A DNA stretch of 64,000 bases from a virus: IMG/VR virus record IMGVR_UViG_3300020182_000007; one strand, 5' to 3'. A model generated the notes under the pieces. The model saw only the letters and a list, made by a program, of their open reading frames with translations. It ran no database searches and was not told the origin of the DNA. This document shows, in pieces, positions 4,879 through 47,408 of the stretch. How positions within the stretch are numbered: the first letter of the stretch is position 1; the number at the start of each line of letters is the position of its first letter. Position numbers and translations under genes: made by a program.

Positions 4879-7029
4879 CTAGTTAATGTACATGTTTAAT
4901 TCATATTTATTTCCCATACCATATATTTGAACGTGTACTGCCTTCTTTTGTTCTTTACCGTTTTTATATAATGCTAGAGTATCTTTCTTAGTCTGTCCAT
5001 CTTTTGGTTTAAAGAATCCATCAACGTATGCATTTCCATACTCTCCATTGTCTAGATCGTAACCCATCTTATTAGCATATTTCTCAACCTCATCAATTGC
5101 AGATGAATATTGATTGTGATAAACTTGAAAATCGCTTTTTGATTCATTCAAGAATTGATCTAGTTTAAGAACATGTTTTAAACTTAATGATTCACTTAAA
5201 CCTTTAGTCCAGCTAGAATCTATTTTATATCCATCTAACCATTCTTGAATTTCAGCAAGAGTACCTCTTTTTATTGTAGTGATTGCATTAGAGTATATGC
5301 TAGCATCTTTCTTCATTACATCAAGTTCCCATCTCTTTTTACCAGAAACATATTGTAAATCATATCCCTTTCCTGTTTTAGGATCTGTATATATTGCTGA
5401 TGTTTTACCTTCAGTAACTACCGATCCATCTACTTTCTGGATAATCCATTCTTTCTTTTTTGCAGCAAATTTCTTAGCTAAATGTATTGGCAAATTATTG
5501 TCTACTACTTTACCTGAATTTTTATTAATAACATTATACCTTTCTATGTCCTGATCAATTGTAGTAACTCCTGATTCACTAAGACCTAATGATTTATTAA
5601 CTAGATCTTCAATAACACTAGAATAATCGTCATTCAAGGCCCATTTAATTGTTTGACCTTCACTTCTTGCTTTTTTGTTTATCCATTTAAGGTGTGCTGC
5701 ATCAGTAAGAAATTCAGAAGCTTCTTTTGCAATTCCTTTTGGATCCTTTTTCCATTCTTCAATCGTAGTACCAAAGTTATTACCTACTGTAGCGCCATTG
5801 GTTCTTTTAAGATTATTGATTCCACCGATCTTAATGTATATGTCATTATTAATAGGCATTGCCTCAAAGAAAACTACATCTCTTTCTTCTGGGTTGTTTT
5901 CACCAGATACTTGATCGATAGCATAAGTACTATGAACTCTCCAAGTAGTTTCGCCTTTTACATTATATGCCGCTGAGAATGTATTTGAACCAAATTCAGA
6001 AGCTTTTAACTTATATGCTTTAGCTTCGGTAACTACAGATTCTGGTAAAGGTTTTGCATCTTCATACTTTAGTTTATTATACCACTGAATTGACAGGATA
6101 TAATTATCTGCAAAACTCTTTAGATCCTTTTCACTCTTAAATGATTGACCACCAAGATTAATATCGTGTCCTTTGTAATATAGGTTATAGTGTGCTCCTC
6201 TTGAATTATCTTTTGTTTTAAGAAAAACTATTTCATCGTTTCCAATGAATTTATTTGGCATTTTACCTTCAGTAACTACTGATTCATCCAGTCCAGCTAG
6301 TTGTTTTATTTTTTTAAGAAACTCACTTGCCTTAGGTCCACCATACTGTTGTAATCTTTGTTGCACTAAATCATAGTTTGATATTACCGCTGATTCATTA
6401 CCTCTTTTAAGTGCATTCTTAATTCCAGTAATTCCGTCTTTTACATCTTTCAAATTTTGACCACTAAGACCGGTTTCTTTATAATTAAATCTAGCTTCAG
6501 TAACTACTGATTCGATTATTACCGATTTAAAATCACCAGGTAATCCTCCGTACCATCCAGACTCTTTATTACTAGGAGTTCCTTCACCATAAATGTTATC
6601 TAGAACTTTAACGTCCATTATAACTTCCCATGACTTAGTCTTAGAATCCCATCCAAAATCTTTTTTAATTGAACCTTTTTCGTCTTTAATAAATTCTACA
6701 AAACCATTATAATCATCTTCGTCTTTAAACGCTAGACCAATAGTATTCTTAGCTTCAGTAACTGCTGATTCGTTTTGAGCATCAGCCCATGCAATTTCCC
6801 AATCATCAATATCAAACTTGTAAAATCCTACTAAATCTGCTATTTTATCATTTGCCGATGGATCGTCTTCTCCTCGTTCCACTTCAGTAACATCATAATA
6901 GTTATTATTAATAAATGTTGCAAGATCTTGTTCAGATGGTCTTCTACCTAATTTAGAAATTACTTTCTTAACAGTGTTGTATTTACCAACATCTTCTCTT
7001 CGTTCCTCTATTGTCTTAATATATTTCAT
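4879..7029 (-). CDS. Predicted internal head polyprotein (about 8 modules separated by ESVVTE[A/G]-like linkers)
   Basis: Linkers ESAVTEA, ESVVTEA, ESVVTEG, ESVVTEA, ESGVTT and GSVVTEG, plus an internal KHVLKLDQFLNES leader-like motif. Confidence 0.7.
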   Translation of the reverse strand: MKYIKTIEERREDVGKYNTVKKVISKLGRRPSEQDLATFINNNYYDVTEVERGEDDPSANDKIADLVGFYKFDIDDWEIAWADAQNESAVTEAKNTIGLAFKDEDDYNGFVEFIKDEKGSIKKDFGWDSKTKSWEVIMDVKVLDNIYGEGTPSNKESGWYGGLPGDFKSVIIESVVTEARFNYKETGLSGQNLKDVKDGITGIKNALKRGNESAVISNYDLVQQRLQQYGGPKASEFLKKIKQLAGLDESVVTEGKMPNKFIGNDEIVFLKTKDNSRGAHYNLYYKGHDINLGGQSFKSEKDLKSFADNYILSIQWYNKLKYEDAKPLPESVVTEAKAYKLKASEFGSNTFSAAYNVKGETTWRVHSTYAIDQVSGENNPEERDVVFFEAMPINNDIYIKIGGINNLKRTNGATVGNNFGTTIEEWKKDPKGIAKEASEFLTDAAHLKWINKKARSEGQTIKWALNDDYSSVIEDLVNKSLGLSESGVTTIDQDIERYNVINKNSGKVVDNNLPIHLAKKFAAKKKEWIIQKVDGSVVTEGKTSAIYTDPKTGKGYDLQYVSGKKRWELDVMKKDASIYSNAITTIKRGTLAEIQEWLDGYKIDSSWTKGLSESLSLKHVLKLDQFLNESKSDFQVYHNQYSSAIDEVEKYANKMGYDLDNGEYGNAYVDGFFKPKDGQTKKDTLALYKNGKEQKKAVHVQIYGMGNKYELNMYIN

Positions 7030-7241
7030 TATATTCCTAATTTTTTATGTAAGACTTCCATAAATCCCTTGTAATTGTGAGACCCGTATTCGTCTTTTAA
7101 TACTTTACCTACTGCTAAAGCAAAATCCTCATATGACATTGAATCGTCGATTTTAATTATTGCTTTATTAATTCCCTTTGCTAATGCGTCTGATTCTTTA
7201 GATTCATTAATAAACTCGTTAAAATCTGTAGTATGTTTCAT
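7029..7241 (-). CDS. Small protein with capsid-targeting-like leader
   Basis: N-terminus MKHTTDFNEFINES. Confidence 0.7.
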   Translation of the reverse strand: MKHTTDFNEFINESKESDALAKGINKAIIKIDDSMSYEDFALAVGKVLKDEYGSHNYKGFMEVLHKKLGI

Positions 7242-7245
7242 ATAT

Positions 7246-7896
7246 TTAGTTATTCATTATGTCTGATAGTGACGCAGCGTTTCCAAATTGATAAGAATCA
7301 TTAGTTAATCCAATAGTGTCGTAATTTGTACCTTCACTATAGTCAAACATTACTCCACCATCTAATGAATTATATTGATCCATCACAAAAAACAACTCAT
7401 ATAATTCTTGGAACATTTTATCTTTAATTTTTGAATCAATCCCACTCCCACATGTTACTGCTATTAAGTAGGTTCTCCTACCACCTGGATTAAAGTTTGC
7501 TCTACCTTGAATTTCTCCGCCAACAGTAGAACTCATTGTACCAGACCATCCACCAGCTGCTCCAGTCGAAGACTGATCAACTTCATATTTTTTATACTTC
7601 TTAATTACTTTAGAAATCTTCTCTGCTAATTTAACAGAATTTCTTCCTCGAAATATATCATAATCGTCTTGTTTGTCATCACCTTGAACCATTAAGGGTT
7701 CTTTATAATTAGGTAATTTACCAGACTTAAGAGCTGCTTCAGCGTTCTTTAAAACCTTTGTATAACTACCGCCCCATTTTTCAACAGCTATTTTGGCAAT
7801 TCTAACCTTGTCTTTTAATTTAGATTTAACACCCGATTTATCAAATGAAATAGATTCTTCGTTGACAAACTCTTCAAATAGTTTTACCTTTTTCAT
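7246..7896 (-). CDS. Protein with capsid-targeting-like leader
   Basis: N-terminus MKKVKLFEEFVNEE. Confidence 0.7.
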   Translation of the reverse strand: MKKVKLFEEFVNEESISFDKSGVKSKLKDKVRIAKIAVEKWGGSYTKVLKNAEAALKSGKLPNYKEPLMVQGDDKQDDYDIFRGRNSVKLAEKISKVIKKYKKYEVDQSSTGAAGGWSGTMSSTVGGEIQGRANFNPGGRRTYLIAVTCGSGIDSKIKDKMFQELYELFFVMDQYNSLDGGVMFDYSEGTNYDTIGLTNDSYQFGNAASLSDIMNN

Positions 7897-7897
7897 A

Positions 7898-9562: not shown

Positions 9563-9964
9563 CTAGTATACCATATTAAAATTAGTCTTTAATTCATCGG
9601 CTTCACTAGATTCGTGGTCTTCAACTCCGAAATCAGTCAGCAGCATAGTATACAAGCTGTTCCAATCTTCGTTATCTGCAAAATTATCTAAATGCTTTTG
9701 ATTAGATTTAATATATTTCTTTAAATCGCTTCTTAAGCCTTCAGCAACTACTGATTCATCAAGCCCTAATGCTTTTATTGCAGATGCATGTTCTTTTGAG
9801 GAAACAAAAACAAATGCCTGTCCTTTTTGATTCCAATCAATTTTAGAATCTCTAAGTACATCCATAGCTTTACTTAAATCCATCATATCTGTTATACCCG
9901 CATCTTTAAATGAGAGCATTTTAGCTTCGTTTATAAATTGTTCAAATAATTTAATATGTTTCAT
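9563..9964 (-). CDS. Two-module protein with capsid-targeting-like leader
   Basis: MKHIKLFEQFINEA leader and internal GLDESVVAEG linker. Confidence 0.75.
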   Translation of the reverse strand: MKHIKLFEQFINEAKMLSFKDAGITDMMDLSKAMDVLRDSKIDWNQKGQAFVFVSSKEHASAIKALGLDESVVAEGLRSDLKKYIKSNQKHLDNFADNEDWNSLYTMLLTDFGVEDHESSEADELKTNFNMVY

Positions 9965-9977: not shown

Positions 9978-10253
9978 TTACATTACTTCTTTTACGTCAA
10001 TGTCGTAGATTTTCTTGAGTTGTTTAATAAACTCCATTTCACCTATCTTTTGGAGTAGTTCACGATTTTGCTTTCCGTTAGTCCAAAAAACCTCATGATT
10101 ATCAACTTCGGTAGTTGAACCAAATCTTTTACCACCTTTGTCTATTAACTCAACCTGATCTCCGTCAATAACATCTTTAAAGTCTTGCTTTTTCATACCC
10201 TTTGGTATAGTTGCTTCGTTTAAAAATTGTTCAAATAATTTAATGTATTTCAT
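9978..10253 (-). CDS. Small protein with capsid-targeting-like leader
   Basis: MKYIKLFEQFLNEA. Confidence 0.75.
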   Translation of the reverse strand: MKYIKLFEQFLNEATIPKGMKKQDFKDVIDGDQVELIDKGGKRFGSTTEVDNHEVFWTNGKQNRELLQKIGEMEFIKQLKKIYDIDVKEVM

Positions 10254-10267: not shown

Positions 10268-12175
10268 TTATTGAATTTTAGTAACTTTACTTTCATTTAC
10301 TTCTGAAGCAAATTCTTCGTATACAGTACCTTTAACTTCTTCTGCATCTTTAAATGCTTTAGCAGATTGCTTTATTTTCTTAATAAATTCCTCAATAGTT
10401 TTCATATCGGCTGGTTTATAATCATCACCAGCATCGTGCTTACCAACCATATAATCAACTGAGTTTTTCAATTCCCACATTGCATTTAATTGTTTTGGTA
10501 ATCTAAAGAATTTAGCTTCAGTAACTACTGATTCATTTTCTACAGTATCACTAGCCATTCTAGAAAATGCTTCAAAAACAATAGTAACATCCTTTACCTT
10601 TAAATCATCTTTAACTAATTCGCCAATCTTATTGTATAAATCTGTTAATTCATCTTCAGTGTGGTGTTTATAACCTTTCTTTAGGGTAATATTAGTTCCG
10701 GAATGTTTTGCCATAAAATCATCTTTAGCTTCAGTAACTACTGATTCATTTAAGTTTTTCTTTAAGAATGCTGTTAAGTCTTTATGAATTTTTTGTGAAT
10801 CTGATGCCTTTATTACACCGCGTTCTTCTAAAAAATTTAATATCTCATTACTAAGAGTTACCTCTTTAATAGCTTCAGTAACTACTGATTCTTTTAAGTT
10901 TTTAATAGTCTTTATAATAGTCTTAACATCATCATCTATATTACCATAAACTGGTGATACATTCGTTTTACGATTCCATGTTGCCATGTTAACTACTGAA
11001 CCATCATCATTGATATTATATGAACCTCCAGCGTATTCTCCAGTTATTCTAGGATCTACATCGTCTTGATCTTCAATATCTAAATCAAATGAATCTTCTT
11101 CATAATCAGAACTAACAGTATATTTCATACCATCTAATTTCGTAAGAGCATCTGCAAATTTCTGTGCAACTTTTAGAGTTTCCTTTTTAGAAAGACCAGC
11201 AGGTTTAGCTTCATCTAATCCTTGTTCTTTATTTTGTTCTGTAGCATAAGCTTCAGCTTCTTCCTCAGTTTTAAAACATTCTACTCTAACATCTCCTTCC
11301 CAAACAGCCCATGGAGTTCCTTCTTCATCACATGGCTTAACAATATATTTATCGTTCGGGTCATCGGTATGATGTTCGCTAGTTCCTTTAATTTTTTCTA
11401 TTAAAGAATCCCATGATATCTTACCTTCAGCTACTTCTTTAGCTCCATCTTCACCATCAACCAACTCATCTTCAACTTCTTCAGTCTCTTCAGATCTGTC
11501 TTTAGCCTTAACGTATTTTTTACCATCAGCATCTTTAACTTCTGGTGTAGTATCTTCTAGATCGCTTTCTAGCTCTTCAGCTGGAAGGTTAAGATCACCT
11601 TCAGCTACTTCTTTAGCTCCATCTTCACCATCAACTAGATCATCTTCAACTTCTTCAGTCTCTTCAGATCTGTCTTTAGCCTTAACGTATTTTTTACCGT
11701 CAGCGTCAACTACTTCTGGTGTAGTATCTTCTAGATCGCTTTCTAGCTCTTCAGCTGGAAGGTTAAGATCACCTTCAGCTACTTCTTTAGCTCCATCTTC
11801 GCCATCAACCAACTCATCTTCAACTTCTTCAGTCTCTTCAGATCTGTCTTCAGCCTTAACGTATTTTTTACCATCAGCATCTTTAACTTCTGGTGTAGTA
11901 TCTTCTAGATCGCTTTCTAGCTCTTCAGCTGGAAGGTTAAGATCACTTTCGAAAGCGACAGCTGCTGTTGTTAATGCAACCATAGCATTTATTTTACCTG
12001 TTGTAAAAAAAGTAAGTGCTTCATTTAGGGAAAGAGGTGTATTAACACCTTCTAGCATTTTTTCAATCCTGTTAGTGTTCTTAGTCTCTACAAGATTAAG
12101 AGCCTCTTTAATCACATCGGCGCTATACGTCGGCGAAGAATCCTCTTTTCTATTATTAAAATTGATAAAACTCAT
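10268..12175 (-). CDS. Acidic head polyprotein or scaffold-like protein with 3 x 58-aa repeats and ESVVTEA linkers
   Basis: The likely start is MSFINF at 12175, 28 nt downstream of GATATATA; the track start at 12241 overlaps the upstream gene. Confidence 0.65.
   Translation of the reverse strand: MSFINFNNRKEDSSPTYSADVIKEALNLVETKNTNRIEKMLEGVNTPLSLNEALTFFTTGKINAMVALTTAAVAFESDLNLPAEELESDLEDTTPEVKDADGKKYVKAEDRSEETEEVEDELVDGEDGAKEVAEGDLNLPAEELESDLEDTTPEVVDADGKKYVKAKDRSEETEEVEDDLVDGEDGAKEVAEGDLNLPAEELESDLEDTTPEVKDADGKKYVKAKDRSEETEEVEDELVDGEDGAKEVAEGKISWDSLIEKIKGTSEHHTDDPNDKYIVKPCDEEGTPWAVWEGDVRVECFKTEEEAEAYATEQNKEQGLDEAKPAGLSKKETLKVAQKFADALTKLDGMKYTVSSDYEEDSFDLDIEDQDDVDPRITGEYAGGSYNINDDGSVVNMATWNRKTNVSPVYGNIDDDVKTIIKTIKNLKESVVTEAIKEVTLSNEILNFLEERGVIKASDSQKIHKDLTAFLKKNLNESVVTEAKDDFMAKHSGTNITLKKGYKHHTEDELTDLYNKIGELVKDDLKVKDVTIVFEAFSRMASDTVENESVVTEAKFFRLPKQLNAMWELKNSVDYMVGKHDAGDDYKPADMKTIEEFIKKIKQSAKAFKDAEEVKGTVYEEFASEVNESKVTKIQ
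11423..11944. repeat. 3 x 174-bp near-identical tandem repeat
   Basis: Units begin at 11423, 11597 and 11771 and encode DLNLPAEELESDLEDTTPEV...DGEDGAKEVAEG. Confidence 0.95.
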
Positions 12176-12790: not shown

Positions 12791-13387
12791 TTATACTTTA
12801 GGTCTTCCTAGTAGTATTTTATCATGTAAAGAACCTCCAAGCTTTCTTGAATACCAGCCAGCACCTGAAGTTCCATCATCTTTTTTACCAATCCATTTAA
12901 CTTTCTTACCCAATACACTTTCAACTACTTCATGTTCTGAAACAACAGGTACGTCATATGAGTCCATTAAGATGTCTGCTAGTTTACCTGAAACTTCAAT
13001 ATAATATCCCAGATTATTTAATTCCTTTCCACGTTCTCCTATGTATTTTCTTTTAGCATCTCGCGTTCCATCATGCCCAACTCCTGAGTATTTAATACCG
13101 AATCTTGTTTTCTTACCAAACATTATAATATCGAAGTCATTATCACCATGTATATCGATGCCCTCCCAGTAATTCCATTCTGGATCAGCGAATACATCTT
13201 CTGGCGATTTAATTTTAGCATGGCCTCCAATTACAGAGTACGCTGTAGATATTAAATCAAAAAATTCACCCGCTAATTCTGGATGTTTCTTATGATCAAA
13301 CTTGACTTTCTTATTACGCTTTGGATTAAATATATCTCCGCTAGATTCTTCACTAATGAAATCTTCAAATAATTTTACTTTTTTCAT
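12791..13387 (-). CDS. Protein with capsid-targeting-like leader
   Basis: MKKVKLFEDFISEE. Confidence 0.7.
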   Translation of the reverse strand: MKKVKLFEDFISEESSGDIFNPKRNKKVKFDHKKHPELAGEFFDLISTAYSVIGGHAKIKSPEDVFADPEWNYWEGIDIHGDNDFDIIMFGKKTRFGIKYSGVGHDGTRDAKRKYIGERGKELNNLGYYIEVSGKLADILMDSYDVPVVSEHEVVESVLGKKVKWIGKKDDGTSGAGWYSRKLGGSLHDKILLGRPKV

Positions 13388-19079: not shown

Positions 19080-19376
19080 TTACAATTTTTGTAATTCTTT
19101 TTCTAGATTAAGCCTCCAGACCATATTATTTGGTACTACAAACTTACGTTTATGTCCATATACATAAAAAGTGGTCTTCCAAATACTTTGTCGAACAATT
19201 CTTGCTTTTTTATTACCATTAATATAGACTAAATCATCAATATTAAAGTCGCTTCCCCATAAAAATTGAATTCCTATAAATATATTAGCAACAGTATCTT
19301 TAAATGCAAAAGTAAGAATGGCTAGTATCGTTAGCCATCCCCATTCTCCTATATACGTTGATATAATTTCTTTCAT
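19080..19376 (-). CDS. Minimal MscS-like mechanosensitive channel domain protein
   Basis: TM helix followed by TVANIFIG...FNIDDLVYING...FVVPN. Confidence 0.65.
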   Translation of the reverse strand: MKEIISTYIGEWGWLTILAILTFAFKDTVANIFIGIQFLWGSDFNIDDLVYINGNKKARIVRQSIWKTTFYVYGHKRKFVVPNNMVWRLNLEKELQKL

Positions 19377-19852
19377 TTTAATAGTCCTAATTTTTGTAAA
19401 TTGTCTATTACTGTTACCTGACTCTTCATTATTAAGCTCTTTGCTGACTTTAAATCTAAAAATCTAGCATCGTTAATTTCTTCTAACTGTAGTCTTGAAT
19501 TTGGTACTTTAAGTTCTTTAAGTCCTATTTCTGATAGATCATTAATTTTAACAATAAAATAATGTACTAGTTTTCTGCCCCACTGAGAGTTAACCTCAAA
19601 CTGATATGAATTAGAAGTAATCATTTTTTTTGATACATTTACTCCTACTTCCTCTTTAACTTCTCTAATCGCTGCTTCAATGTTAGTTTCTCCAGTCTCA
19701 ATTCCACCTTTTGGAATACCGTAACCTGTTTTAAAGTTTCTGCCTGTAGTATGTCCTAACAATACCTTTCCATCAAAGATAATTGCTAGACCAGCTGAAG
19801 TTTTTACTATACCTTCATTAGTAAACTGATCTAATGTCTTTAATTTTTTCAT
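19373..19852 (-). CDS. NUDIX hydrolase with capsid-targeting-like leader
   Basis: Nudix box GGIETGETNIEAAIREVKEEVG; leader MKKLKTLDQFTNEG. Confidence 0.9.
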   Translation of the reverse strand: MKKLKTLDQFTNEGIVKTSAGLAIIFDGKVLLGHTTGRNFKTGYGIPKGGIETGETNIEAAIREVKEEVGVNVSKKMITSNSYQFEVNSQWGRKLVHYFIVKINDLSEIGLKELKVPNSRLQLEEINDARFLDLKSAKSLIMKSQVTVIDNLQKLGLLK

Positions 19853-22188: not shown

Positions 22189-25064
22189 ATGTTTTTCTTT
22201 ATTATATCTATTACAAACTCAGGTTCAATCTCTTTAGTACATTCAAACTGTCTTTCAGTGCCTTTATGTGCTGGACACCAATTCCAGTCTCCCTTATTAA
22301 ATACGTCCCATGACCAGCAACTATTACAGGAGGTTTTATTAATAATCCTAATACAATTATCCGTAAATTCGCAAACTTCTGGGGTAAATCCACTAATTAA
22401 GAAAACTTTTGCACCAAGCGCCCAAGCAAACCAGCTCAGTCCACTACTAACTCCAACAAACGCGGTAGAAGCATGAATTAATTGTGCAACATTCTCAAGT
22501 TCTGATTCTGCCTGCTCAACCTTTAAGTCAGTTCCCTCCATACTACAATGGATCCAATGATATTCATCCATCCCTTCTACCAATTCTCTCCAACCCGTTG
22601 GATGATTCCAATATTTAGCACCTGCTGTACTTTTAGTAGCAAATGTAATTATGGGGTCCCTTCTACTTGGTAGTTGATCCCATTTCTGGAATTGTGGAGC
22701 CAATTTAGGTCTGACCTCCTTAAATGGTATACCAAGCCTGTCACTTGCTATTTGTGCTAAGTGTATTTTTCGCCAATCCACTCTGTGTTCTGCACGTCTC
22801 CAAGGTTCTTCAGGACTATAAAATACGCCAAGGTTAATTGTGTATATCTCATTAGGAAATTCATTAACAATCTGAATACCGCGACTGGCGTAGTACTCAG
22901 TGTCAAATAACCAACTCTTATGAGTTTTTACAAACACATTCTTCCAGCCCCAATGGGTTTTAAAATCCTCTAGTTGGCCCATCCATGCTAGTGTGTCTCC
23001 AAGGCTCGAACTGTCAAATTGAACACCAATGGTATTATCCATAGTTTCTAGTTGCCACTCCCATACCAATTTATCGTCCTGTAGTATTTCGACTCTCCAA
23101 GGGGTAAACCAATGTTGAGAGGGCTGATACCATCTGTCTGATTCAATTGAGGTTTCATAAACTATTCTGTCAGTAGTAGTGTCAATAAATCTGGCACGGA
23201 AGTTTCCAGGAGGGAGCTCTCCAGCGTGCAGTTTAAAATAACGCTTAAGTGATATTGATATTCTGGCATTGATACTATTATTTACTTCTGGTACTTTATG
23301 AGTTTCTGAGTATAGTTGAAGCATTTCTTTACGAAAGCGTTCAATGTCGTTGCTTGGTAATATAAAATCTCCTAAATTTTCTCCTTGTTCTATGAGCTCT
23401 CTGAATAATATAGCGGCATTTTCTTTTAGATCATTAGTAAATGGAGTAATGTAAGGAGTAAACATGTCCAAATATTGAGGAAGGTTTCTTGTAAATGTTG
23501 GTAAACGATGCGCAATTGCTTCACGTAAAGAGAGTGGATTGCATTCCAATGTAGAATTAAACATAAATGCATCCGATGTTTGGTAAAAAAGTTCAACGTC
23601 CTTTCTCTCTCCCCAAACAGTAACATTAGATGGTAGGTTTTCCATTAGAGGCCTCCAATAACTACCAAAGTTTCCTGCTTGATTTCCTACAAAATGAAAT
23701 TGAAATGTGTTAGGATAGAGTTCTTCTGCAATTCTTGCTATTTCTACTCCTTCGCCTTGATTTTTTCCTGGTGTCCAAAGGCCTACGTTTAAAATATTGA
23801 TCTTATCAGCAGGTATGCCAAGCTCTAATTTAATCTTAGCACGAACCATTGCTTCTTGTTGAAGATCTTCAATAGGGTATTCTACTACCTCTCCATTTGA
23901 AGTAGTGTCCTTGAAATTATTAATTGGATGATATGGTGTACAATACATATAAGAATTAGGATGCCATACCTTCTTGTCATTGTTCATCCATATATTATGA
24001 CAAGTTTCTATAATCTGATATGATCTATCCTTTCTGTATATTTTATTTAAAGTGTTGGTACTCATCTTATTACCACCGTCGAATGATTCAGGACACTCCT
24101 CGATATGTATGATATCTGGTTTAATTGAATCTATTAGATCAAGTATGCGAGATTCTCGTTGTTCTATACTTATTCCTGTGTTGAGTGATATTAGCCTGTC
24201 TCCTAGTAATTCTTCTAACTTATCTTTTTGAACTACAAAATGATCTGAGTAATTATTAAATTCAACAACATATACTTCAAGATCTGAACAATCGATAAGA
24301 GTCTCTACTCTTTTTAGTAAAAATTGCGGCATGCCTCCAGTAGATAGGTGTGGTGCAATATACATCAACCTTTTATTGGAATTATTAAAATTACGTTCTC
24401 TGTTTTCAATAGTGCTTATTCCGTCCCATTGTCCAGTTGGAGAATCAGAAAAAATGCCAATCTTCTTTTTATCCATAAAATTTTGATTAAGAAAGATGTC
24501 AGCACCGTCCCATTTAGAATTAACATAACAGTCTAGAAGATACTTACGAATCCTTTGAGGGAACATAATCATTTGAATACCAATGATCTTGTTAGTAATT
24601 TCTATATCACCATGTTTCTCTAGAGCAATACTCTGTAACACATTTCCTTCTAATGTATATTTACTACCTAGCGAGAAGTAGTCAATACAAAGCTCTTGGG
24701 TGGCTTCGTATGCTCTGTTTATTTTGTCTACTACTTGATCTGGAGATTCAGTTAACCTAACATCTCCTTCACATAATATTAAAGAATCTATGTCCTTTCC
24801 AAAATTATCAATAGCACCGTCGGCGAATGCTCTAAAACAACCGTAATGTGCCTTATTGATAGGTACCTGATCAAACATTTGCGGTCTTGCAAAGTTTTCT
24901 CTAGGAGGATTATCTTTCCACCTTTCATTCCAGACTTGAACATACTCTATTCCTCTTAATTCGAGTTCTTTGAGTTGTTCTATTGATTTTTCCTGTCTAT
25001 GGAGGTCTAAATCGTCTGATAGTAATAAATGTACTAATCTAATCTTGTACTTAGACTTGATCAT
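22185..25064 (-). CDS. Multidomain glycosyltransferase (GT-A-like, GT4-like and TibC/GT9-like heptosyltransferase domains)
   Basis: CEGD, PHLSTGGMPQ, ECNPLSLREA, SSSLGDTLAW and FVGVSSGLSWFAWALG motifs. Confidence 0.8.
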   Translation of the reverse strand: MIKSKYKIRLVHLLLSDDLDLHRQEKSIEQLKELELRGIEYVQVWNERWKDNPPRENFARPQMFDQVPINKAHYGCFRAFADGAIDNFGKDIDSLILCEGDVRLTESPDQVVDKINRAYEATQELCIDYFSLGSKYTLEGNVLQSIALEKHGDIEITNKIIGIQMIMFPQRIRKYLLDCYVNSKWDGADIFLNQNFMDKKKIGIFSDSPTGQWDGISTIENRERNFNNSNKRLMYIAPHLSTGGMPQFLLKRVETLIDCSDLEVYVVEFNNYSDHFVVQKDKLEELLGDRLISLNTGISIEQRESRILDLIDSIKPDIIHIEECPESFDGGNKMSTNTLNKIYRKDRSYQIIETCHNIWMNNDKKVWHPNSYMYCTPYHPINNFKDTTSNGEVVEYPIEDLQQEAMVRAKIKLELGIPADKINILNVGLWTPGKNQGEGVEIARIAEELYPNTFQFHFVGNQAGNFGSYWRPLMENLPSNVTVWGERKDVELFYQTSDAFMFNSTLECNPLSLREAIAHRLPTFTRNLPQYLDMFTPYITPFTNDLKENAAILFRELIEQGENLGDFILPSNDIERFRKEMLQLYSETHKVPEVNNSINARISISLKRYFKLHAGELPPGNFRARFIDTTTDRIVYETSIESDRWYQPSQHWFTPWRVEILQDDKLVWEWQLETMDNTIGVQFDSSSLGDTLAWMGQLEDFKTHWGWKNVFVKTHKSWLFDTEYYASRGIQIVNEFPNEIYTINLGVFYSPEEPWRRAEHRVDWRKIHLAQIASDRLGIPFKEVRPKLAPQFQKWDQLPSRRDPIITFATKSTAGAKYWNHPTGWRELVEGMDEYHWIHCSMEGTDLKVEQAESELENVAQLIHASTAFVGVSSGLSWFAWALGAKVFLISGFTPEVCEFTDNCIRIINKTSCNSCWSWDVFNKGDWNWCPAHKGTERQFECTKEIEPEFVIDIIKKNI

Positions 25065-25453: not shown

Positions 25454-25458
25454 ATCTA

Positions 25459-30017: not shown

Positions 30018-30019
30018 CT

Positions 30020-30199
30020 TTACTTTTTGTTAATTTCAGAAATCTCAGTACGTTGTTCCTGAGCCAATGCTTTTAAAGACTGCATTGCTTTTCTTACTCT
30101 TGTTCCTGCTGATTTGTTTCCACTCTCGTAGAACTTAACAACATCTGCACTTACTTCTTCTAGAAGCTCGACCATTTGGTCATAAATTGAATTTTCCAT
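30020..30199 (-). CDS. Histone H1-like nucleoid protein (Hc1 family), 59 aa, not in track
   Basis: Hand translation MENSIYDQMVELLEEVSADVVKFYESGNKSAGTRVRKAMQSLKALAQEQRTEISEINKK; GNKxAGTRxRK is the Hc1 signature. Confidence 0.85.
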   Translation of the reverse strand: MENSIYDQMVELLEEVSADVVKFYESGNKSAGTRVRKAMQSLKALAQEQRTEISEINKK

Positions 30200-30280
30200 G
30201 TTTAATTATTTATTTGTTTGTTTAATTTATATAAGGATTTAGTAATAAGTTTCAAAAGTATATTAAATATTATACAGGTA

Positions 30281-30592
30281 TTAAGATTTGCCTAGTGCGC
30301 ATTTACATAACGGAACTGACTCCAGATCTTCTTGAACCTCATATTCGCATTCTTCTATTCGTTCATCTAGATCATCACATATGTTTTCGATGCTATCGCA
30401 TCTAGTATTTAGGTCATCCACTAGTGTATCTAGTGTATCGTAGAGGTCATTTTGTTCTGCTTCTAATTCCAACATGTATTGTATTTTTAATTCAAGATCC
30501 GTTACGGTTCGAGACATATTAAACATTTTGTAAATTCCGGCAATTAATAGTGATAGTAGTACACCTGAGATAAAGGCAATTGTTTGTTCCAT
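30281..30592 (-). CDS. Membrane-anchored coiled-coil protein
   Basis: N-terminal TM helix and acidic coiled coil. Confidence 0.55.
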   Translation of the reverse strand: MEQTIAFISGVLLSLLIAGIYKMFNMSRTVTDLELKIQYMLELEAEQNDLYDTLDTLVDDLNTRCDSIENICDDLDERIEECEYEVQEDLESVPLCKCALGKS

Positions 30593-30652
30593 GATATTTG
30601 TTTTTTAAATTTATATGAAGTTATATGATTGTTTGTTTAAAAGTTTCATAAA

Positions 30653-31225
30653 TTACTTTAGGTCTTTTAAAATATCTCTACGTACACTTTCTAAATACTT
30701 TTCTCTTTTTTCTTGAGATATGAAAGGGACTGACCAAAATTGTTTGGTTTTAAACCAACGTGACAATTTCCAACCGAATACAAATGTGAATACGCCCATA
30801 ACCAATCTCAATTTAACTGAGTTTAGATATATCAATTTAACAGGAAGCCCTGGTGCGCCATGTGTGATGTATGTCCTAACTTTCTTATCATTTAATAGAG
30901 GTTTAGGATATGCGTAAGGACCAATAATAGGTATGAAATTGTATGCAAACCCTGGAGTAAAGACCTCATCAAAGAATATTTCCATTCTTGGAGTTAATCT
31001 AAACCACCACACTGGAGATACAAAATAAATCCTATCAGACCAAGTTACAAGTTCTTTATACTTTTTAATTAAGTCCGTCCTTGGTCTAGAGAATTCATCG
31101 CTATAGAGATCTAATACTTCTACATCTTCATTACGATCTTTTAATGTGTTTAAAATTGTTTTGTAAATCCCGTTATAACAGAATGATTTTTGATCGGGAT
31201 GTGATATTACAATTAAGTTTTTCAT
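30653..31225 (-). CDS. NAD(P)H:quinone oxidoreductase, flavodoxin-like fold (KefF/MdaB family)
   Basis: ISHPDQKSF, DLYSDEF, FVSPVWWF and FFDEVFTPGFAY; likely start MKNL at 31225. Confidence 0.88.
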   Translation of the reverse strand: MKNLIVISHPDQKSFCYNGIYKTILNTLKDRNEDVEVLDLYSDEFSRPRTDLIKKYKELVTWSDRIYFVSPVWWFRLTPRMEIFFDEVFTPGFAYNFIPIIGPYAYPKPLLNDKKVRTYITHGAPGLPVKLIYLNSVKLRLVMGVFTFVFGWKLSRWFKTKQFWSVPFISQEKREKYLESVRRDILKDLK

Positions 31226-40265: not shown

Positions 40266-41021
40266 TTATTTTAAATCTGGTAAATAGTTAGATGCCATTT
40301 CAAAGAAACCATCTGTAAGCATAGATATCATAGCAGATCCCGCAGTAGCAAATGTCTCTTGGTCGATCATGACAATAGGATTTTTATCATCTTTAGTATC
40401 GCCTACTGCCGGCCACATATATTCACCAGACCCATAATCATGTGTTACCCAATCTTCATTTGTAATATCGATCTTTAGTTTCTGTGCAATTGTCTTTACT
40501 AGAATTAGACGAGTAAGAGTAACTCCTACTTCATGAGCAATTTGTTCAATTACAGCGGACATAGAACTTACGTTTTTTGCAGCGCCACTTAATCTTGTAC
40601 CGTTTGTCCAAAAGTACTGATCTTTACCTCCATTCATTATATTAACTAATCCATAAATTATGGCATCGTTTTCAGATTCTTTTCCTGCAGCAACATCCTT
40701 TTTAACTTCTTCTTCTGGGATACCAGAAAACTTTTCAACATCATCTCCTAAAGCAAAAACTCCAGTAGAATCATCTGACATAGACATAACAACGGTTTGT
40801 TTAATTTTCTCGCCAAAAACAGCGGAATCTTCCATTGTCATTTCAAACTCAAAGTCATATTTCTTAGCGAAGATTCCTTCACCTAGGTCTAAATCAGTAG
40901 TAGTCCATTTAATATCATATGTATCGGGTATTGATATGTTTCCCGGTTTATATGATCCAGCTTCTTCATTTATTGATTTAGCTTTGTTTGTAAATTGTTC
41001 AAATAGTTTAATGTGCTTCAT
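40266..41021 (-). CDS. Protein with capsid-targeting-like leader, possible degenerate metallopeptidase
   Basis: MKHIKLFEQFTNKAKSINEE; IAHEVG motif lacking the second His. Confidence 0.55.
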   Translation of the reverse strand: MKHIKLFEQFTNKAKSINEEAGSYKPGNISIPDTYDIKWTTTDLDLGEGIFAKKYDFEFEMTMEDSAVFGEKIKQTVVMSMSDDSTGVFALGDDVEKFSGIPEEEVKKDVAAGKESENDAIIYGLVNIMNGGKDQYFWTNGTRLSGAAKNVSSMSAVIEQIAHEVGVTLTRLILVKTIAQKLKIDITNEDWVTHDYGSGEYMWPAVGDTKDDKNPIVMIDQETFATAGSAMISMLTDGFFEMASNYLPDLK

Positions 41022-41300: not shown

Positions 41301-42455
41301 TCATATTGATTGTTTAAAAATTTTTGTTTCTATTTCTTTAATTTTTTGTGCTATTTGAGGACCTTTTACACCAAACTCTTTTATTACCTTGTTTCCGTCA
41401 GTACTTGGTTTGTATTTTAAGAATGCTCTTATTAGCTTAAGATCTAATCTATTTATCTTTGAGAATACAATAATGTTGTTTTTATCCAATACCGTTCTTT
41501 CGAATTCTTTGTATAAATCAAAAACTCCTTCAGGTTTAAATGTTAATAGACTTTTTAAGAATATGACGCAATTTACTTCATCACTAGAGAAAGTCATTCG
41601 ATTCATCTCTTTTTTAATCAACTCACGGTCGTTGTTACCAAATATTGTTGCTAACTGTACTAACCATAGGCTTGACTCTATAAAATTCTCGCTAACTTGT
41701 AGATTAGGAAACATTACTGGCCAGAGGTTAAACTCGCTTACCATTTTTAGGTAGTCTTTTGTCTTCTTTGCGGATTCAATTGATTTTTTAAACTCATCTC
41801 TAATTCTCTCAGGACTAACACCCTCTAAATTATTATCGGTTAAAATAGCATCTGCAGTTTCTTTCTCAAGCCTTGATCCTGTTTTACCCGCAAATCGAAG
41901 GGCTCTTAACTTTCTTAATGGATCCTCAGCAAATCTTTCTGCGGCGATTCCAACAGTTCTAATCTTTTGATCTTGAATATCTCTTAAACCACCTACTAGA
42001 TCTATAACTTCACCCTTACTAATATCATAGAAAAGAGCATTAATTGTTAGGTCTCTTCTGAGAACGTCTTTATCTATTGTTGAGTAATTTACACCTTCAG
42101 GTCGTCTGCCACTTCCGATATCCTCGCGAAAGGTTGCGATCTCAACTCCATTTCTATCTGAAGGAATCTGTACGATAACGACTCCAAATTGCTGCCCAAC
42201 TTCTCCAATTGTTGAGTATCCAGCAGCTGTTACTATTTTAACAACCTCTTCTGGAAAAGCATCAGTTGCTAAGTCAAAATCCTTTGGCTTTTTACCAAGT
42301 ATCGCATCACGAACTGCACCTCCTACAATATAGAGCTCTTTGCCGTTCTCTTTAAATAGTTTATGTAGGTCAATAACATCAGACGGCACGTTGAGCTTAA
42401 GTGTACTCTGTGCTTCAGTTAGCAACTTAAATTCTGTATATGTTTTTATCTTCAT
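41301..42455 (-). CDS. cca: CCA-adding tRNA nucleotidyltransferase / poly(A) polymerase family
   Basis: VGGAVRD, DFDLAT, RRDLTINAL, EDPLRKLRALRFA and SPERI; leader MKIKTYTEFKLLTEA. Confidence 0.9.
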   Translation of the reverse strand: MKIKTYTEFKLLTEAQSTLKLNVPSDVIDLHKLFKENGKELYIVGGAVRDAILGKKPKDFDLATDAFPEEVVKIVTAAGYSTIGEVGQQFGVVIVQIPSDRNGVEIATFREDIGSGRRPEGVNYSTIDKDVLRRDLTINALFYDISKGEVIDLVGGLRDIQDQKIRTVGIAAERFAEDPLRKLRALRFAGKTGSRLEKETADAILTDNNLEGVSPERIRDEFKKSIESAKKTKDYLKMVSEFNLWPVMFPNLQVSENFIESSLWLVQLATIFGNNDRELIKKEMNRMTFSSDEVNCVIFLKSLLTFKPEGVFDLYKEFERTVLDKNNIIVFSKINRLDLKLIRAFLKYKPSTDGNKVIKEFGVKGPQIAQKIKEIETKIFKQSI

Positions 42456-42486: not shown

Positions 42487-43776
42487 TTAAAATGTCCTTT
42501 CTCCTTCGTAAATTCCTTTCATTACTGGAAATCTTAACGATTCTTCTCCTTTATCGTTCTTTGTGGTTTCGAAGTACTGCACTGTTATTGTTTTTCCTAA
42601 GATTTGATCAGGGTTTTCAAAGAAGTATCTTTTTTGTTCGTGAGAAAATCCAGAGCCAACTTGAACCCTGTTTCCTTTATGTTCAACCACAACATTTTTG
42701 AGCATTAACTCATCAACCTCTTTTCCTTCTACAATAACTCTATTTACTGCGTTTTCAAGATCTACAACAACGTATTCGTCATCAAAGAATTTCTTAACTT
42801 TAAGAATATCATTAGAACGTTTTCCTTGATAGGTATCATCTTTGCGTAACATTAGTCCTTCCCAACCCTCGTTCTTAGAGATCTCCATCATATCTTCTAG
42901 TAGATCATCGCTTCCTATTCTCTGGTCTAATACCTTGATAAATTTATTGTCTAATGATATAGATTTAAGAGATTCTAGTCTTTCACTTAGAAGTGATGTA
43001 GATACTTCTTCGTTAAACTCTGTTAATGTTAATAGATCAAACATAAAATATACAGGATTTTCGATTGTGTGATCTTTTCTCTTGATCTCTTTAATAATTC
43101 CTTGAAAATCTTCGTTTCCATCTTTATCAGTCATACAAATCTCTCCATCAATAACCATATTTGTAAGTCCTAATTTCTGAATAGAAGGCTTTAAAGAATC
43201 TAATGTTAAGAACGGCTTTCCAGCTCTACTAAAGAAATTAACATTTCCAATCTCGTCAATTATTGTTAAACAACGAACACCATCTAATTTGCGGCTAACG
43301 TACCAGTTATCATTCCAATCTACTTTCTTTGAGGTTTTTTCGTTATATGTGTTTGCTAACGCTACGTCAAACGTTGGAATTAACCCTGGAACTACTTTGT
43401 TAATCATAGAAGTCGTAGAACGTGTCTTTAGGTTTCTATCAATAATATTCCAAATAAGATCTGCGTATACATAGTTCTCTTGTACAAATCTATTGACGTT
43501 TGCAATTGCAGCATGTCCTGTACAAACTCTATTATTTAAGTCATCTAATAAACCGAAGAAATCTCCATAAGTATTTGGATGACCCATAAGATCTGAATTC
43601 TTTTTACAGTTCTTAGAAGTTACTCCATATTGCTTATAAGTATCATAAGTATATAGAAGAGCCTTCTTAACGCTATCATACTGGGTGTACGTCTTTAATA
43701 CATCAAGCTTGTCTGTGTTTGAGTTAGTTGTGTTTGATTGTTCAACGAAATCATAAATTAATTGTAAGTCTGTCAT
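42487..43776 (-). CDS. lig: ATP-dependent DNA ligase
   Basis: KLDGVR (KxDG), DGE, YFMFD, EGLMLR and LKVK motifs plus an OB domain. Confidence 0.95.
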   Translation of the reverse strand: MTDLQLIYDFVEQSNTTNSNTDKLDVLKTYTQYDSVKKALLYTYDTYKQYGVTSKNCKKNSDLMGHPNTYGDFFGLLDDLNNRVCTGHAAIANVNRFVQENYVYADLIWNIIDRNLKTRSTTSMINKVVPGLIPTFDVALANTYNEKTSKKVDWNDNWYVSRKLDGVRCLTIIDEIGNVNFFSRAGKPFLTLDSLKPSIQKLGLTNMVIDGEICMTDKDGNEDFQGIIKEIKRKDHTIENPVYFMFDLLTLTEFNEEVSTSLLSERLESLKSISLDNKFIKVLDQRIGSDDLLEDMMEISKNEGWEGLMLRKDDTYQGKRSNDILKVKKFFDDEYVVVDLENAVNRVIVEGKEVDELMLKNVVVEHKGNRVQVGSGFSHEQKRYFFENPDQILGKTITVQYFETTKNDKGEESLRFPVMKGIYEGERTF

Positions 43777-43922: not shown

Positions 43923-45407
43923 TTAATCCTTTTCAAATATTATGCCTCCATGATTATCTCCCTTTGATTCAACTGGTAGATACTCGCTGTCAAATGAAGT
44001 TGCCATAAATGTTTTAAATGGATTAACCGAACATCCTATTCTTTCCATAAATTTACGATTTATTAGGATAGGAGTTGATTTATCAGTCCTATCTCCTAGA
44101 CAAACATAGACGTCGTTATAAGTTTTACCAGAAAATGTAATATCTAATTCAATAATAGGTCTTCTATGGGTATCTTCTCCAACCTCTGGTTCAGAGAATC
44201 CAATAATATCATTTTCGAATTTCTTATCTCCAAGTTCCCATTTGACTGATTTTTTATCTTTGGATATATCGATCTTATCATAAGTTAGAGTGTTTGCTGC
44301 TCCTCCATTACCAGTATCGAATTTTGCTACTATATCTCCGATACCCTTAATACCTACGGCTTCTCTAAATCCTACAGTTTTTCTAGATCTTATCCAATTT
44401 TCTTTATCTGCAAGAAAATCAATAACATCCTTTACTACATCTACTCCGGTAGCTTTTTTAAGACCTTCCGTTCCAGGAGATGCATTAACCTCAAGCACGT
44501 AGTTTTTACCAGTCTTTGCGTCTACTATAATATCAACGCCACACCAGTTACATCCAATAGCTTTAGCGCTTTCAATTGCAATTTGTTTTTGTTCGGGTGT
44601 TAGCTCAGTTTTTTCAACAGTTCCTCCTAGTGTATAATTAGTTCTAAAATCATCTCCAACTTTATTTCTTCTCATGTAACCTAATAGAACTGAATCAGTT
44701 TCTGACGGAACTGGAGAGTTAAATCTACGAGTCAATACATGAATTCTTAGATCGTATTCTGTTTCTATTTTTTCTTGAATAAGTAGTTCAACACTAGGAT
44801 TAGCTTTCCATATTGTCTGAATTACCGATTTTAAAGATGTTGATGAATCAACAATAGAAACACCAATACCTTGGGATCCTGATAGCATTTTAAGAACTAG
44901 TGGGAATTTACCACCTATTGCAGCAACTGCACTATCTAAAGATTCTTCGTTATCTATGAGTGACATTTTAGGAATTGGAATTCCAGCGTCTGCTAATATT
45001 TTAGAAGTGGTGTACTTGTTTTCACATGTCATTACTGAATCAAGAGTGTTGACAACAAAGAAATTAGCCAACTCTAATTGTTCAACAATATCTCTAGTAT
45101 ACGTACTTTTAACTATTCCTCTCCTTGTTAAAATAACAGTATCTTCAGAAGATATTTTCATTTTAGATTTATCATCAGAAATAGTAAATGACTCTTTGTC
45201 TTTGTTAAGATCTAATTGAACTGAATCGACGCTAATTACGGCAATCTGAATTCCTTGCTTTTTACATTCAGCAATAATACCAGGAACCGATTTTGACTCT
45301 GTATTTATATTTGAAAGTAAAACTACTTTGGGCTTGTCTTGAGATTTACTTGCTTTTTTAGCTTCGTTAATCACAAAATCTTGATATGATAATATTCTAG
45401 TCGACAT
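43923..45407 (-). CDS. rimK: RimK-family ATP-grasp ligase fused to a retropepsin-like (DTG) protease domain
   Basis: ENKY, FPLVLK..GSQG.GV, QEKI, DLRI, FRTNY.LGG, GVDII and EVNASPG; C-terminal AKFDTGNG and ILINRKFM; leader MSTRILSYQDFVINEA. Confidence 0.88.
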   Translation of the reverse strand: MSTRILSYQDFVINEAKKASKSQDKPKVVLLSNINTESKSVPGIIAECKKQGIQIAVISVDSVQLDLNKDKESFTISDDKSKMKISSEDTVILTRRGIVKSTYTRDIVEQLELANFFVVNTLDSVMTCENKYTTSKILADAGIPIPKMSLIDNEESLDSAVAAIGGKFPLVLKMLSGSQGIGVSIVDSSTSLKSVIQTIWKANPSVELLIQEKIETEYDLRIHVLTRRFNSPVPSETDSVLLGYMRRNKVGDDFRTNYTLGGTVEKTELTPEQKQIAIESAKAIGCNWCGVDIIVDAKTGKNYVLEVNASPGTEGLKKATGVDVVKDVIDFLADKENWIRSRKTVGFREAVGIKGIGDIVAKFDTGNGGAANTLTYDKIDISKDKKSVKWELGDKKFENDIIGFSEPEVGEDTHRRPIIELDITFSGKTYNDVYVCLGDRTDKSTPILINRKFMERIGCSVNPFKTFMATSFDSEYLPVESKGDNHGGIIFEKD

Positions 45408-46357: not shown

Positions 46358-46783
46358 TTAAGAATATTCTGGTGTATCGATAATCTTTTTCTTAATAAGG
46401 ATATCGATAAAATCTCTAAACGGCATGCCAACTTTAGTTCCTGCTATGTTTTTATCTCCTTCAACAAATGCGCCATCGAAATAATAGTCATTTCCGTTGT
46501 CAGCAGCAACCGTAATTAGAGTGCCTAGCATAAAACTACCAGGAACTCTTACTTTTGAACCATGCAATACCTTTACGCTGTTTTTATTAAATCCGCTTAA
46601 ATACATTTCTTCACGAGCAGTATCTGGTCCTCCTGGGTTTCCTCCTGCGTTCTGTAGTGCTTCACCTTCTGGAGTGTCTATTTCGGCGTATAGCACTGCG
46701 ATAATTTCGTTTGCTAAATCTTGATCTCTTCCTACCTTCAATCCTTCATTTAAGAATTGTTCAAATAATTGTATGTGTTTCAT
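46358..46783 (-). CDS. Protein with capsid-targeting-like leader
   Basis: Real start MKHIQLFEQFLNEG at 46783. Confidence 0.75.
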   Translation of the reverse strand: MKHIQLFEQFLNEGLKVGRDQDLANEIIAVLYAEIDTPEGEALQNAGGNPGGPDTAREEMYLSGFNKNSVKVLHGSKVRVPGSFMLGTLITVAADNGNDYYFDGAFVEGDKNIAGTKVGMPFRDFIDILIKKKIIDTPEYS

Positions 46784-46796
46784 TTTGTTTTGTTTT

Positions 46797-47084
46797 TTAT
46801 TTAATTTTCCAGCTAGCAAAAGCGTCATTGACATTTATTTGATTAGCATATATTGTTTCTTTTTTCCAAGATTTAGATGAAGTAATACCAGAATCACCTT
46901 TATGTTCTACTTCAATTGTACTATCTTCTGGCTTGGATTTATCTAATTTAATTGATTTTATTACACCAGAAATAACATCACCTTTTAATCTGAAATAAAT
47001 CTCTTGCTTAGGTTTAAACGTTTGGCCATCATGTGCTAATACGCCTTCGTTTAAGAATTGTTCGTATAATTTAATGTGTTTCAT
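46797..47084 (-). CDS. Protein with capsid-targeting-like leader
   Basis: MKHIKLYEQFLNEG. Confidence 0.75.
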   Translation of the reverse strand: MKHIKLYEQFLNEGVLAHDGQTFKPKQEIYFRLKGDVISGVIKSIKLDKSKPEDSTIEVEHKGDSGITSSKSWKKETIYANQINVNDAFASWKIK

Positions 47085-47090
47085 TTTATT

Positions 47091-47408
47091 TTATTTTTGT
47101 TTTATTACATGTGGTAATAGGTGTAAGTATAATGAGTGTACGTCTTCCCAGAATGCATTTCTAGAAAAATCTGCAACACTATCGTATCTTGAAATATTAT
47201 TCCACCAATCATCAAATATATCTTCAAATTCACTTTCCGTAAATTTAAACATTTTAGGATCCAGCATGTTCCAAATATCTGCAACTTCTTCAGCATTATT
47301 AATTGCCTGAGATACTTCTTTATATTCTTTAGTTTTACTGTCTTTTTTCATTTGAGAAAAGCTAGTTTTCTCGCTAACGAATTGTTCGAATAATCTAACG
47401 TGTTTCAT
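47091..47408 (-). CDS. Protein with capsid-targeting-like leader
   Basis: MKHVRLFEQFVSEK; GATATATA upstream. Confidence 0.75.
   Translation of the reverse strand: MKHVRLFEQFVSEKTSFSQMKKDSKTKEYKEVSQAINNAEEVADIWNMLDPKMFKFTESEFEDIFDDWWNNISRYDSVADFSRNAFWEDVHSLYLHLLPHVIKQK

Follow-up and report, generated by a model that had tools for sequence, protein, structure and literature searches.

Why should a dozen genes with otherwise unrelated products begin with nearly the same 13 codons? The question is raised by a stretch of 64,000 nucleotides from the IMG/VR virus record IMGVR_UViG_3300020182_000007 (hereafter the window), which corresponds to the reverse strand of bases 39850-103849 of a single contig of 148,784 bp. 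The contig has 33.6% G+C and an estimated completeness of 49% (CheckV), and the minus strand of the window carries nearly all of its genes. The original prediction, made from the letters of the window, held that the shared N-termini are a portable leader like the one that targets internal proteins of phage T4 to the capsid, and that about 14 proteins bear it, enzymes included. Our analysis leads to a similar answer: with a probability of roughly three in four, we are dealing with capsid-targeting propeptides of the T4 kind, in a system that has grown larger and counts enzymes among its cargo. From the sequences we infer that the tagged proteins are packaged, lose their leaders and are injected. 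Positions below refer to the window, unless the contig is named.

The strong form of the leader, MK(H/K/Y)(I/V)(K/R/Q)L(F/Y)E(Q/E/D)F(I/L/V/T)(N/S/T)E, heads 12 open reading frames (ORFs) of the contig, eight of which lie in the window with starts at 47408, 47084, 46783, 41021, 13387, 10253, 9964 and 7896. When scored with a position matrix built from the strong copies, these 12 ORFs reach 38-48 bits, all exactly at Met1, and no hit in random sequence matched to the genome in size and composition exceeded 12 bits; a scan of the whole contig thus finds 12 strong ORFs where chance would supply none. The seven near-identical N-termini that had been listed (all of the above except 41021) are present on the minus strand with 38-48 bits. 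Two further starts had been described as looser, which is right for 7241 (21 bits), but 41021 turns out to be a strong copy (43 bits). Variants had also been assigned to a NUDIX hydrolase, a CCA-adding enzyme and a RimK-type ligase. The NUDIX copy (start 19852) scores 17 bits, and the N-termini of the CCA (42455) and RimK (45407) genes read as they had been quoted; they are gapped, like that of the contig gene g2812 outside the window, and fit the core pattern aromatic-x-[polar]-[FW]-x(0-3)-[ILVMT]-x-E. Of the 183 called N-termini, 13 have this core, where its internal frequency would predict 0.67. In total, 12 ORFs and one internal copy (13.5 bits, in the ORF w7029) are tagged in the window and 18 ORFs plus that internal copy on the contig, so that the earlier count was close. 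The weakest of the 18 is the contig gene g29066, outside the window, whose looser leader MKFKKVLLFEELQNQE was spotted by eye and falls outside the core pattern. The strict DNA pattern has 11 sites on the contig, all on the coding strand, and a reversed control has none. Leaders are 13 residues long in the strong copies and 10-17 in the variants.

The conservation lies in the peptide. When the 12 strong copies are compared in pairs, their DNA identity is 0.77 across the 39 bases of the leader and falls to 0.40 and 0.33 in flanks of 39 bases upstream and downstream, respectively. Where two copies share an amino acid, their codons differ in 34% of pairs, compared with 44% expected from the codon usage of the genome. 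Synonymous variation near expectation, together with the sharp edges of the similarity (from the ATG to codon 13), indicates selection on the peptide, and the synonymous-site test rules out a DNA-level repeat. An all-against-all BLASTP comparison of 19 bodies, with the leader removed, returned no significant similarity (best E 0.01). The tag is therefore portable, and a paralogous gene family can be ruled out. Drawn as a helix, the leader is amphipathic, with a hydrophobic moment of 0.63 that places it in the top 2% of shuffles.

The known sequence that the leader resembles is the capsid-targeting sequence (CTS) found on T4's internal proteins IPI, IPII and IPIII, described by Mullaney and Black (1996) and reviewed in PMC9026906 and PMC3012670. 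In the T4 record, IPII and IPIII start with MKTYQEFIAE|A (the bar marks the cleavage site). According to PMC9026906, residues 4 and 7 matter most for targeting and residues 8 and 10 for processing, and the protease gp21 cuts after L/I-x-E. The most conserved positions of the leader, F/Y7, F10, [ILV]11 and E13, align with T4 Y4, F7, I8 and E10, which is a match at the level of sequence.

The contig also encodes the machinery that such a leader would use. Its head module follows the T4 order, with a portal gene (PF07230), a leader ORF, an S77 protease with an extension, a further leader ORF and a gp23-type major capsid protein (MCP; PF07068). The protease, a Peptidase_S77 of the gp21 family (PF03420, 52.6 bits against a cut-off of 27), forms the N-terminal part of a 615-residue protein; it aligns with T4 gp21 (E 5e-12) and with 5JBL, and keeps the catalytic His and Ser, the two residues that are changed to Ala in 5JBL, a crystal structure of inactive T4 gp21. 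Two tagged ORFs therefore lie inside the head module, and one of them, the small ORF g23948 after the portal gene, has an acidic tail like that of T4 gp67. In this phage and 32 relatives, the MCP begins MA[NT]L[IL]NE|[AS]E[IV], which aligns with ...FLTE65|AEIGG of T4 gp23. The [ILV]-N-E|A end of the leader matches this MCP start, and hence represents the same kind of site as is expected for capsid maturation here. The propeptide of T4 gp23 has 65 residues (PMC5694885). The MCP of the contig (26879-28264; L004:6879-8264) begins just 7 residues before the site aligned with E65|A, and it seems to do without the long N-terminal propeptide of its T4 counterpart.

Cleavage-type sites recur inside genes. 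Twelve in-frame S(V/A)V(T/N/A)E|(A/G) linkers are confined to four genes (g29066, w12241, w9964 and w7029), where they join unrelated modules, in many cases with another Glu site ahead of the linker (LDE|SVVTE|A). By their architecture, the linker-bearing genes look like head polyproteins cut by the prohead protease; g29066 (contig 29066-30814) is the second gene 3' of the MCP gene. The polyprotein w7029 (4879-7029, minus strand, 716 residues), with modules joined by E|S(V/A)VTE|(A/G) linkers, holds the internal leader copy, LKHVLKLDQFLNE|S at 5143-5181, which stands directly after a linker and is followed by the last module. The polyprotein w12241 (10268-12175, minus strand) contains three ESVVTE|A linkers and heads an operon with w10253 and w9964; its start is likely Met23 at 12175, with a GATATATAA box upstream. 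It also contains three copies of an acidic repeat of about 60 residues that is present in the C-terminal extension of the protease protein, and this common repeat ties w12241 to the head core. Elsewhere on the contig (4676-5215, L003), KYVSTFESFNLSE|S comes after an internal Met of a 179-residue ORF, at about residue 70, which is either a second internal leader-like copy or the sign of a mis-called start.

The extension of the protease offers a possible explanation of how the leader is recognised. The 615-residue protein (contig 24337-26184, outside the window; L004:4337-6184) continues past the protease for about 450 residues, and a fusion of protease and scaffold is the probable reading of its sequence. 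Counted over the 43,949 residues of all ORFs, aromatic-x-x-[FYWH]-[ILVM]-x-E heptads number 29; 12 of these are the leaders, and six more, of the YTEHVAE type, lie in the protease-scaffold protein (residues 261-372), mostly at a spacing of 14 residues, against an expectation of about 0.03. The corresponding proteins of relatives contain 4-10 heptads in 76 of 76 cases, and the count is zero in T4 gp21, gp22, gp67 and gp68 and in the protease of Tenacibaculum phage PTm1. These repeats suggest that a leader enters the core by its likeness to a single scaffold repeat. In T4, too, gp22 has an N-terminus (…EQLIAE|A) similar to the CTS (…QEFIAE|A). We tentatively extend the idea, while holding it to be somewhat doubtful as a whole, to the proposal that the tag is a single copy of the scaffold repeat. 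Any protein that gained the 13 residues would then co-assemble into the core and be freed by the same cut, and the lineage would pre-load enzymes that act on DNA entry, before phage gene expression: the CCA-adding enzyme (tRNA 3'-end repair), the NUDIX hydrolase and the ATP-grasp ligase here, and Acb1-like cyclic-nucleotide phosphodiesterases in relatives. If true, injected cargo would be predictable by sequence across thousands of uncultured phages. The match between tag and scaffold repeat also provides a testable model of tag recognition, for which we found no explanation in the case of T4 in the literature consulted.

The phage is a distant relative of T4 and belongs to an uncultured lineage that is abundant in marine samples, including those of Tara. 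By MCP, the closest GenBank phages are uncultured huge phages, Prevotella Lak phages and phage PTm1, with identities of at most 50%; IMG/VR holds at least 587 relatives, the best 80 of which have MCPs 67-88% identical to the one studied here. A megablast search of the window region against GenBank phages gave no match, nor did a tblastn search with the tagged protein w7896, and a full-text search for the leader string 'KLFEQF' found no paper in the collection searched. The leader itself is widespread among the relatives. A hit to the leader matrix is present in 68 of the 80 MCP-related loci, mostly on an ORF of 110-134 residues about 2.5 kb upstream of the MCP gene, a position that corresponds to the gap between portal and protease on this contig, and five related partial genomes have 4-12 strict DNA-pattern matches each, with none in the controls. 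A strict pattern restricted to residues 1-10 matched at least 118 stretches in IMG/VR, from which 120 distinct complete proteins were taken; 94 of the 120 have [ILVMFT]-x-E at the unconstrained positions 11-13. For 106 such tagged proteins, mean column identity is 6%, and Pfam recognises ATP-grasp domains in five, Acb1 or 2H phosphoesterases in four (two of which exceed the Acb1 cut-off), cytidylyltransferase-like domains in three, leucine-rich repeats in three and GNAT domains in two.

The tags of individual genes tell a similar story. Nearly all of the best 120 CCA homologues (at least 70% identity) start with M..[KR][TS][FY]T.F..[ILV][NT]E|A, and the few exceptions have a downstream Met start or are fragments. 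Among nine RimK homologues, a leader variant is found in all eight that have a readable N-terminus, including MKAPKFREFISE at 35% body identity. The NUDIX homologues, which came from a protein homology search (a pattern search of IMG/VR gave none), divide into 41 tagged and 79 untagged proteins; the untagged body begins right after MKTK…, and the split is a natural comparison of gain or loss. In the family of w7896, the leader varies more than any other part, yet the aromatic pair and [ILV]-N-E persist, also where 4 residues are inserted. Homologues of w13387 in IMG/VR are also tagged. Where the original prediction goes beyond the motif and sequence analysis can judge it, it is supported: the leader is T4-like in its matched CTS residues and its [ILV]-x-E|A end, and the genome supplies a protease that keeps both catalytic residues, His and Ser, within a head module of T4 order; the leader is portable among unrelated bodies and is kept on CCA and RimK proteins of relatives; and untagged NUDIX homologues are available for comparison. 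The packaging, leader removal and injection, and the roles in host takeover and anti-defence, that were also envisaged stay at the level of prediction. Not foreseen in it were the head-module copies, the copy inside a polyprotein and the recurrence of the motif in the scaffold.

Other observations concern gaps and tags in related genomes. The 192-residue tagged ORF g26203, in the gap between the protease and MCP genes of the contig, was considered as a conserved scaffold and rejected, since it is variable and L009, L011, L012, L013 and L040 have a 15-codon ORF, MLRLKLEEQFLREAL, in that gap. L013 has a full 192-residue tagged copy alongside the 15-codon ORF, which by its sequence looks like the remnant of a lost tagged gene. 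In two uncultured huge phages of 630-640 kb (GenBank LR745206.1 and LR756502.1; L221 and L222), the CCA enzymes start with M(I/K)I.KY..FLE|S, a different but similar tag, which in LR745206 is also present on a neighbouring gene and on a gene about 2 kb from the MCP gene.

A promoter-like box recurs in front of many genes. It reads (G/A)ATATATA(A/G) and lies 12-60 nt upstream of the portal, protease, MCP, sheath and tube genes and of most leader transcription units, with 41 hits on the coding strand versus 7 on the other; examples of the GATATATA(A/G) form in the window are at 47440, 41033, 12210 and 8877. No Shine-Dalgarno sequences are visible, and the sequence 5' of genes is A-rich. A sigma-70 family protein (regions 2 and 4, 202 residues) is encoded at 47558-48166 on the minus strand, directly upstream of a cluster of three leader genes, and may read these boxes.

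We therefore propose the following scenario for the enlarged T4-type system. The tagged genes would be transcribed together with the structural genes. The first ten or so residues of each product would bind the scaffolding core of the prohead, likely by mimicking the scaffold's own tandem aromatic-x-x-aromatic-[ILV]-x-E repeat. The S77 (gp21-type) protease would then cut after the Glu of [ILV]-x-E, at the type of site that is present at the MCP start and in the ESVVTE|A linkers, and the freed protein would remain in the head and enter the cell with the DNA. Here the predicted cargo would consist of the CCA-adding enzyme, the RimK-type ATP-grasp ligase, the NUDIX hydrolase and about a dozen uncharacterised proteins.

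Other processes could give rise to a shared N-terminus, and the one that deserves most attention is that the tag marks only parts of the prohead core or scaffold, which are cut up and expelled like T4 gp22, gp67 and gp68 and do not act as effectors. Such a role would suit the two tagged ORFs of the head module, including g23948 with its gp67-like tail, the polyproteins, so rich in cleavage-type linkers that they look destined for cutting into pieces, and the several tagged proteins that are small and acidic. It does not account for the tagging of intact folded enzymes free of internal linker runs (CCA, RimK-type and NUDIX proteins here, Acb1-like and GNAT proteins in relatives), nor for the great diversity of the bodies and their replacement from relative to relative, a turnover known from T4 internal proteins as well, and we consider it unlikely. 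Less probable still is that the leader serves as a recognition propeptide for the protease, keeping proteins inactive or timing their activation, with no part in capsid sorting. The phage does encode an S77 protease, and the most constant part of the leader is its cleavage-type end, [ILV]-N-E; yet cleavage needs just these three residues, and the conservation extends to the aromatic pair and the basic start, which match the T4 positions for targeting, not those for processing. The motif is moreover repeated in the scaffold, and T4 gp21 acts inside the prohead (PMC9026906).

Two further explanations appear very improbable, to about the same degree. The similarity might be a property of the nucleic acid, either an A/U-rich translation start in a host that does not use Shine-Dalgarno sequences or a recombination cassette that spreads gene starts. 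The A-rich upstream regions, the lack of visible Shine-Dalgarno sequences and the A/T-rich leader codons would all agree with this, but synonymous sites vary nearly as in random codon choice, the similarity ends abruptly on either side of the 13 codons, the insertion variants keep the amino-acid pattern, and one copy is located within an ORF, directly after a linker. Alternatively, the tag might direct proteins elsewhere (to a membrane, a compartment or a secretion route) or be a degradation signal. An amphipathic helix with a moment of 0.63 would be compatible with this; however, the leader has no hydrophobic stretch of the signal-peptide kind, genes of the head module bear it, a head-type polyprotein has it internally, and the MCP maturation site and the scaffold repeats both match it.

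Several observations weigh against a capsid-targeting system with delivered cargo. The residue after the leader Glu (P1') is often K, E or N, not A, G or S, and w41021, a strong copy, has no Glu at position 13. Compared with the T4 internal proteins, the mature bodies are not uniformly small or basic, ranging from 57 to 601 residues and from pI 4.1 to 9.4, and part of the tagged set may belong to the core and be degraded, not delivered. The link between scaffold repeat and leader rests on one negative control phage, PTm1, with 0 heptads in its protease and no match to the leader pattern tried. The box occurs upstream of a gene read as the small subunit of ribonucleotide reductase (from its N-terminus only; no family search was run), so that a 'late' timing of the box-bearing genes is not established. 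Finally, no cultured relative with the tag was found: the leader pattern tried on the genome of PTm1, which is cultured and has an MCP about 35% identical, gave 0 matches, as did the GenBank phages searched with w7896.

If capsid targeting is nevertheless the correct reading, loading by CTS and gp21 would be ancient and general in the T4 superfamily, and a motif search could list the injected proteome of uncultured phages. Enzymes of the CCA-adding or Acb1-like phosphodiesterase kind may then arrive ready-made, as a first strike against defences that target tRNA or use cyclic nucleotides.

The tagged genes of the window, all on the minus strand, can be described in order of decreasing coordinates. 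The ORF w47408 (47091-47408, 105 residues; leader in codons 1-13, 47370-47408, MKHVRLFEQFVSE, 44.0 bits) heads the three-gene leader cluster, which has a GATATATAG box 5' of it. It is followed by w47084 (46797-47084, 95 residues; leader MKHIKLYEQFLNE|G, 44.5 bits) and w46783 (46358-46783, 141 residues; leader MKHIQLFEQFLNE|G, 45.8 bits). The longest ORF of the latter, from 46834, would overlap the gene upstream of it, and translation likely starts at the leader Met (46783). The RimK-type ATP-grasp ligase (43923-45407, 494 residues; Pfam E 1.7e-36) has the gapped leader MSTRILSYQDFVINE|A (45363-45407) before a domain that starts at residue 28, and the enzyme of the CCA-adding and poly(A) polymerase family (41301-42455, 384 residues; Pfam E 2.4e-34) has the gapped leader MKIKTYTEFKLLTE|A (42414-42455) before a head domain that starts at residue 41. 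Between these two tagged genes lies an untagged ATP-dependent DNA ligase (42487-43776). The next ORF, w41021 (40266-41021, 251 residues), starts with MKHIKLFEQFTNK (43.1 bits) and has a body of no identified family; it carries T11 and K13, an I-N-E|E site follows 7 residues on, ending at residue 19, and a GATATATAA box lies 12 nt upstream.

The NUDIX hydrolase (19373-19852, 159 residues; Pfam E 3.3e-14) has the leader MKKLKTLDQFTNE|G (19814-19852, 16.9 bits) and a folded domain from about residue 17, so that the Pfam domains of the RimK, CCA and NUDIX proteins all begin 15-40 residues past Met. Further along are w13387 (12791-13387, 198 residues; leader MKKVKLFEDFISE|E, 38.1 bits), with a body of no identified family, w10253 (9978-10253, 91 residues; leader MKYIKLFEQFLNE|A, 44.5 bits) and w9964 (9563-9964, 133 residues; leader MKHIKLFEQFINE|A, 48.5 bits), the last with an internal LDE|SVVAE|G linker. 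The ORF w7896 (7246-7896, 216 residues; leader MKKVKLFEEFVNE|E, 40.1 bits) has a body that is 71-86% identical across many marine samples, and w7241 (7029-7241, 70 residues) carries the looser leader MKHTTDFNEFINE|S (20.9 bits). Near the start of the window, at 1889-3844, is a gene for a 651-residue collagen-repeat protein.

Searches of PHROGs and Pfam with the uncharacterised bodies gave nothing useful, and a protein atlas search with w41021 and w13387 provided no usable lead. The protein w7896 has only a weak Peptidase_C25 match (E 0.0026), and its AlphaFold model found no fold match: the best Foldseek E was 0.08, and the best VIA-align Z was 6.3 over 77 residues, within the noise range stated for that tool. 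In the AlphaFold2 models of w7896 and the NUDIX hydrolase (predicted local distance difference test scores of 80.7 and 90.6, respectively), the leader is of low confidence and separate from the folded body.

How, then, does this system compare with those already known? Knowledge of the T4 tag comes from a handful of small proteins in a few coliphages. The leader described here shares with it the position right after Met on unrelated proteins, the core aromatic-x-x-F-[ILV]-x-E|A, an end of the [L/I]-x-E type and a gp21-family protease in a T4-ordered head module. It differs in a front that is longer by three residues (MKHIKL...), in the number of tagged genes (at least 18 on half a genome, versus three in T4), in cargo that includes recognisable enzymes and bodies that are not uniformly basic, in the copy inside a polyprotein, and in a core that is repeated in the scaffold, the heptad being absent from T4 gp21, gp22, gp67 and gp68; the system is, unlike that of T4, known from sequence alone. 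As a protein class, the tagged bodies do not fit the small, basic, DNA-associated type of IPI-III, several of them being enzymes, nor do they belong to the IP families, and on present sequence comparisons they would be IP-type cargo in role, not members of those families. The core genes compare in a similar manner. The order of portal, small core gene, protease, scaffold and MCP, the small post-portal ORF with its gp67-like acidic tail and the multiple [ILV]-x-E sites recall T4 gp67, gp68 and gp22, but no sequence similarity to these proteins was detected, and the scaffold is apparently fused to the protease (615 residues), as annotated for phage PTm1.

Enzymes in the head are not without precedent. 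T4 Alt, an ADP-ribosyltransferase, is loaded in the head, trimmed by the prohead protease gp21 and injected (PMC9026906); its N-terminus, MELITELFDE..., is not an IP-type tag, whereas the enzymes described here bear the common tag itself. In the giant phages phiKZ, 201phi2-1 and SPN3US, a protease related to gp21 cuts many proteins packaged in the head, among them ejection and inner-body proteins, on the C-terminal side of Glu. Conserved N-termini can be common to paralogues there, and the propeptides are believed to direct their proteins to the prohead (PMC5694885, PMC7411985). Those propeptides are mostly longer than 100 residues, end in A/S/G-x-E sites and have no short tag in common; in the lineage studied here, one tag of 13 residues is found on unrelated proteins. 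The CTS has already been suggested as a route by which T4-like phages load varied proteins (PMC9026906). New in relation to that concept are the lineage in which the tag occurs, the scale of its use, the enzymes among its cargo, the copy that lies within a polyprotein and the repetition of the core motif in the scaffold.

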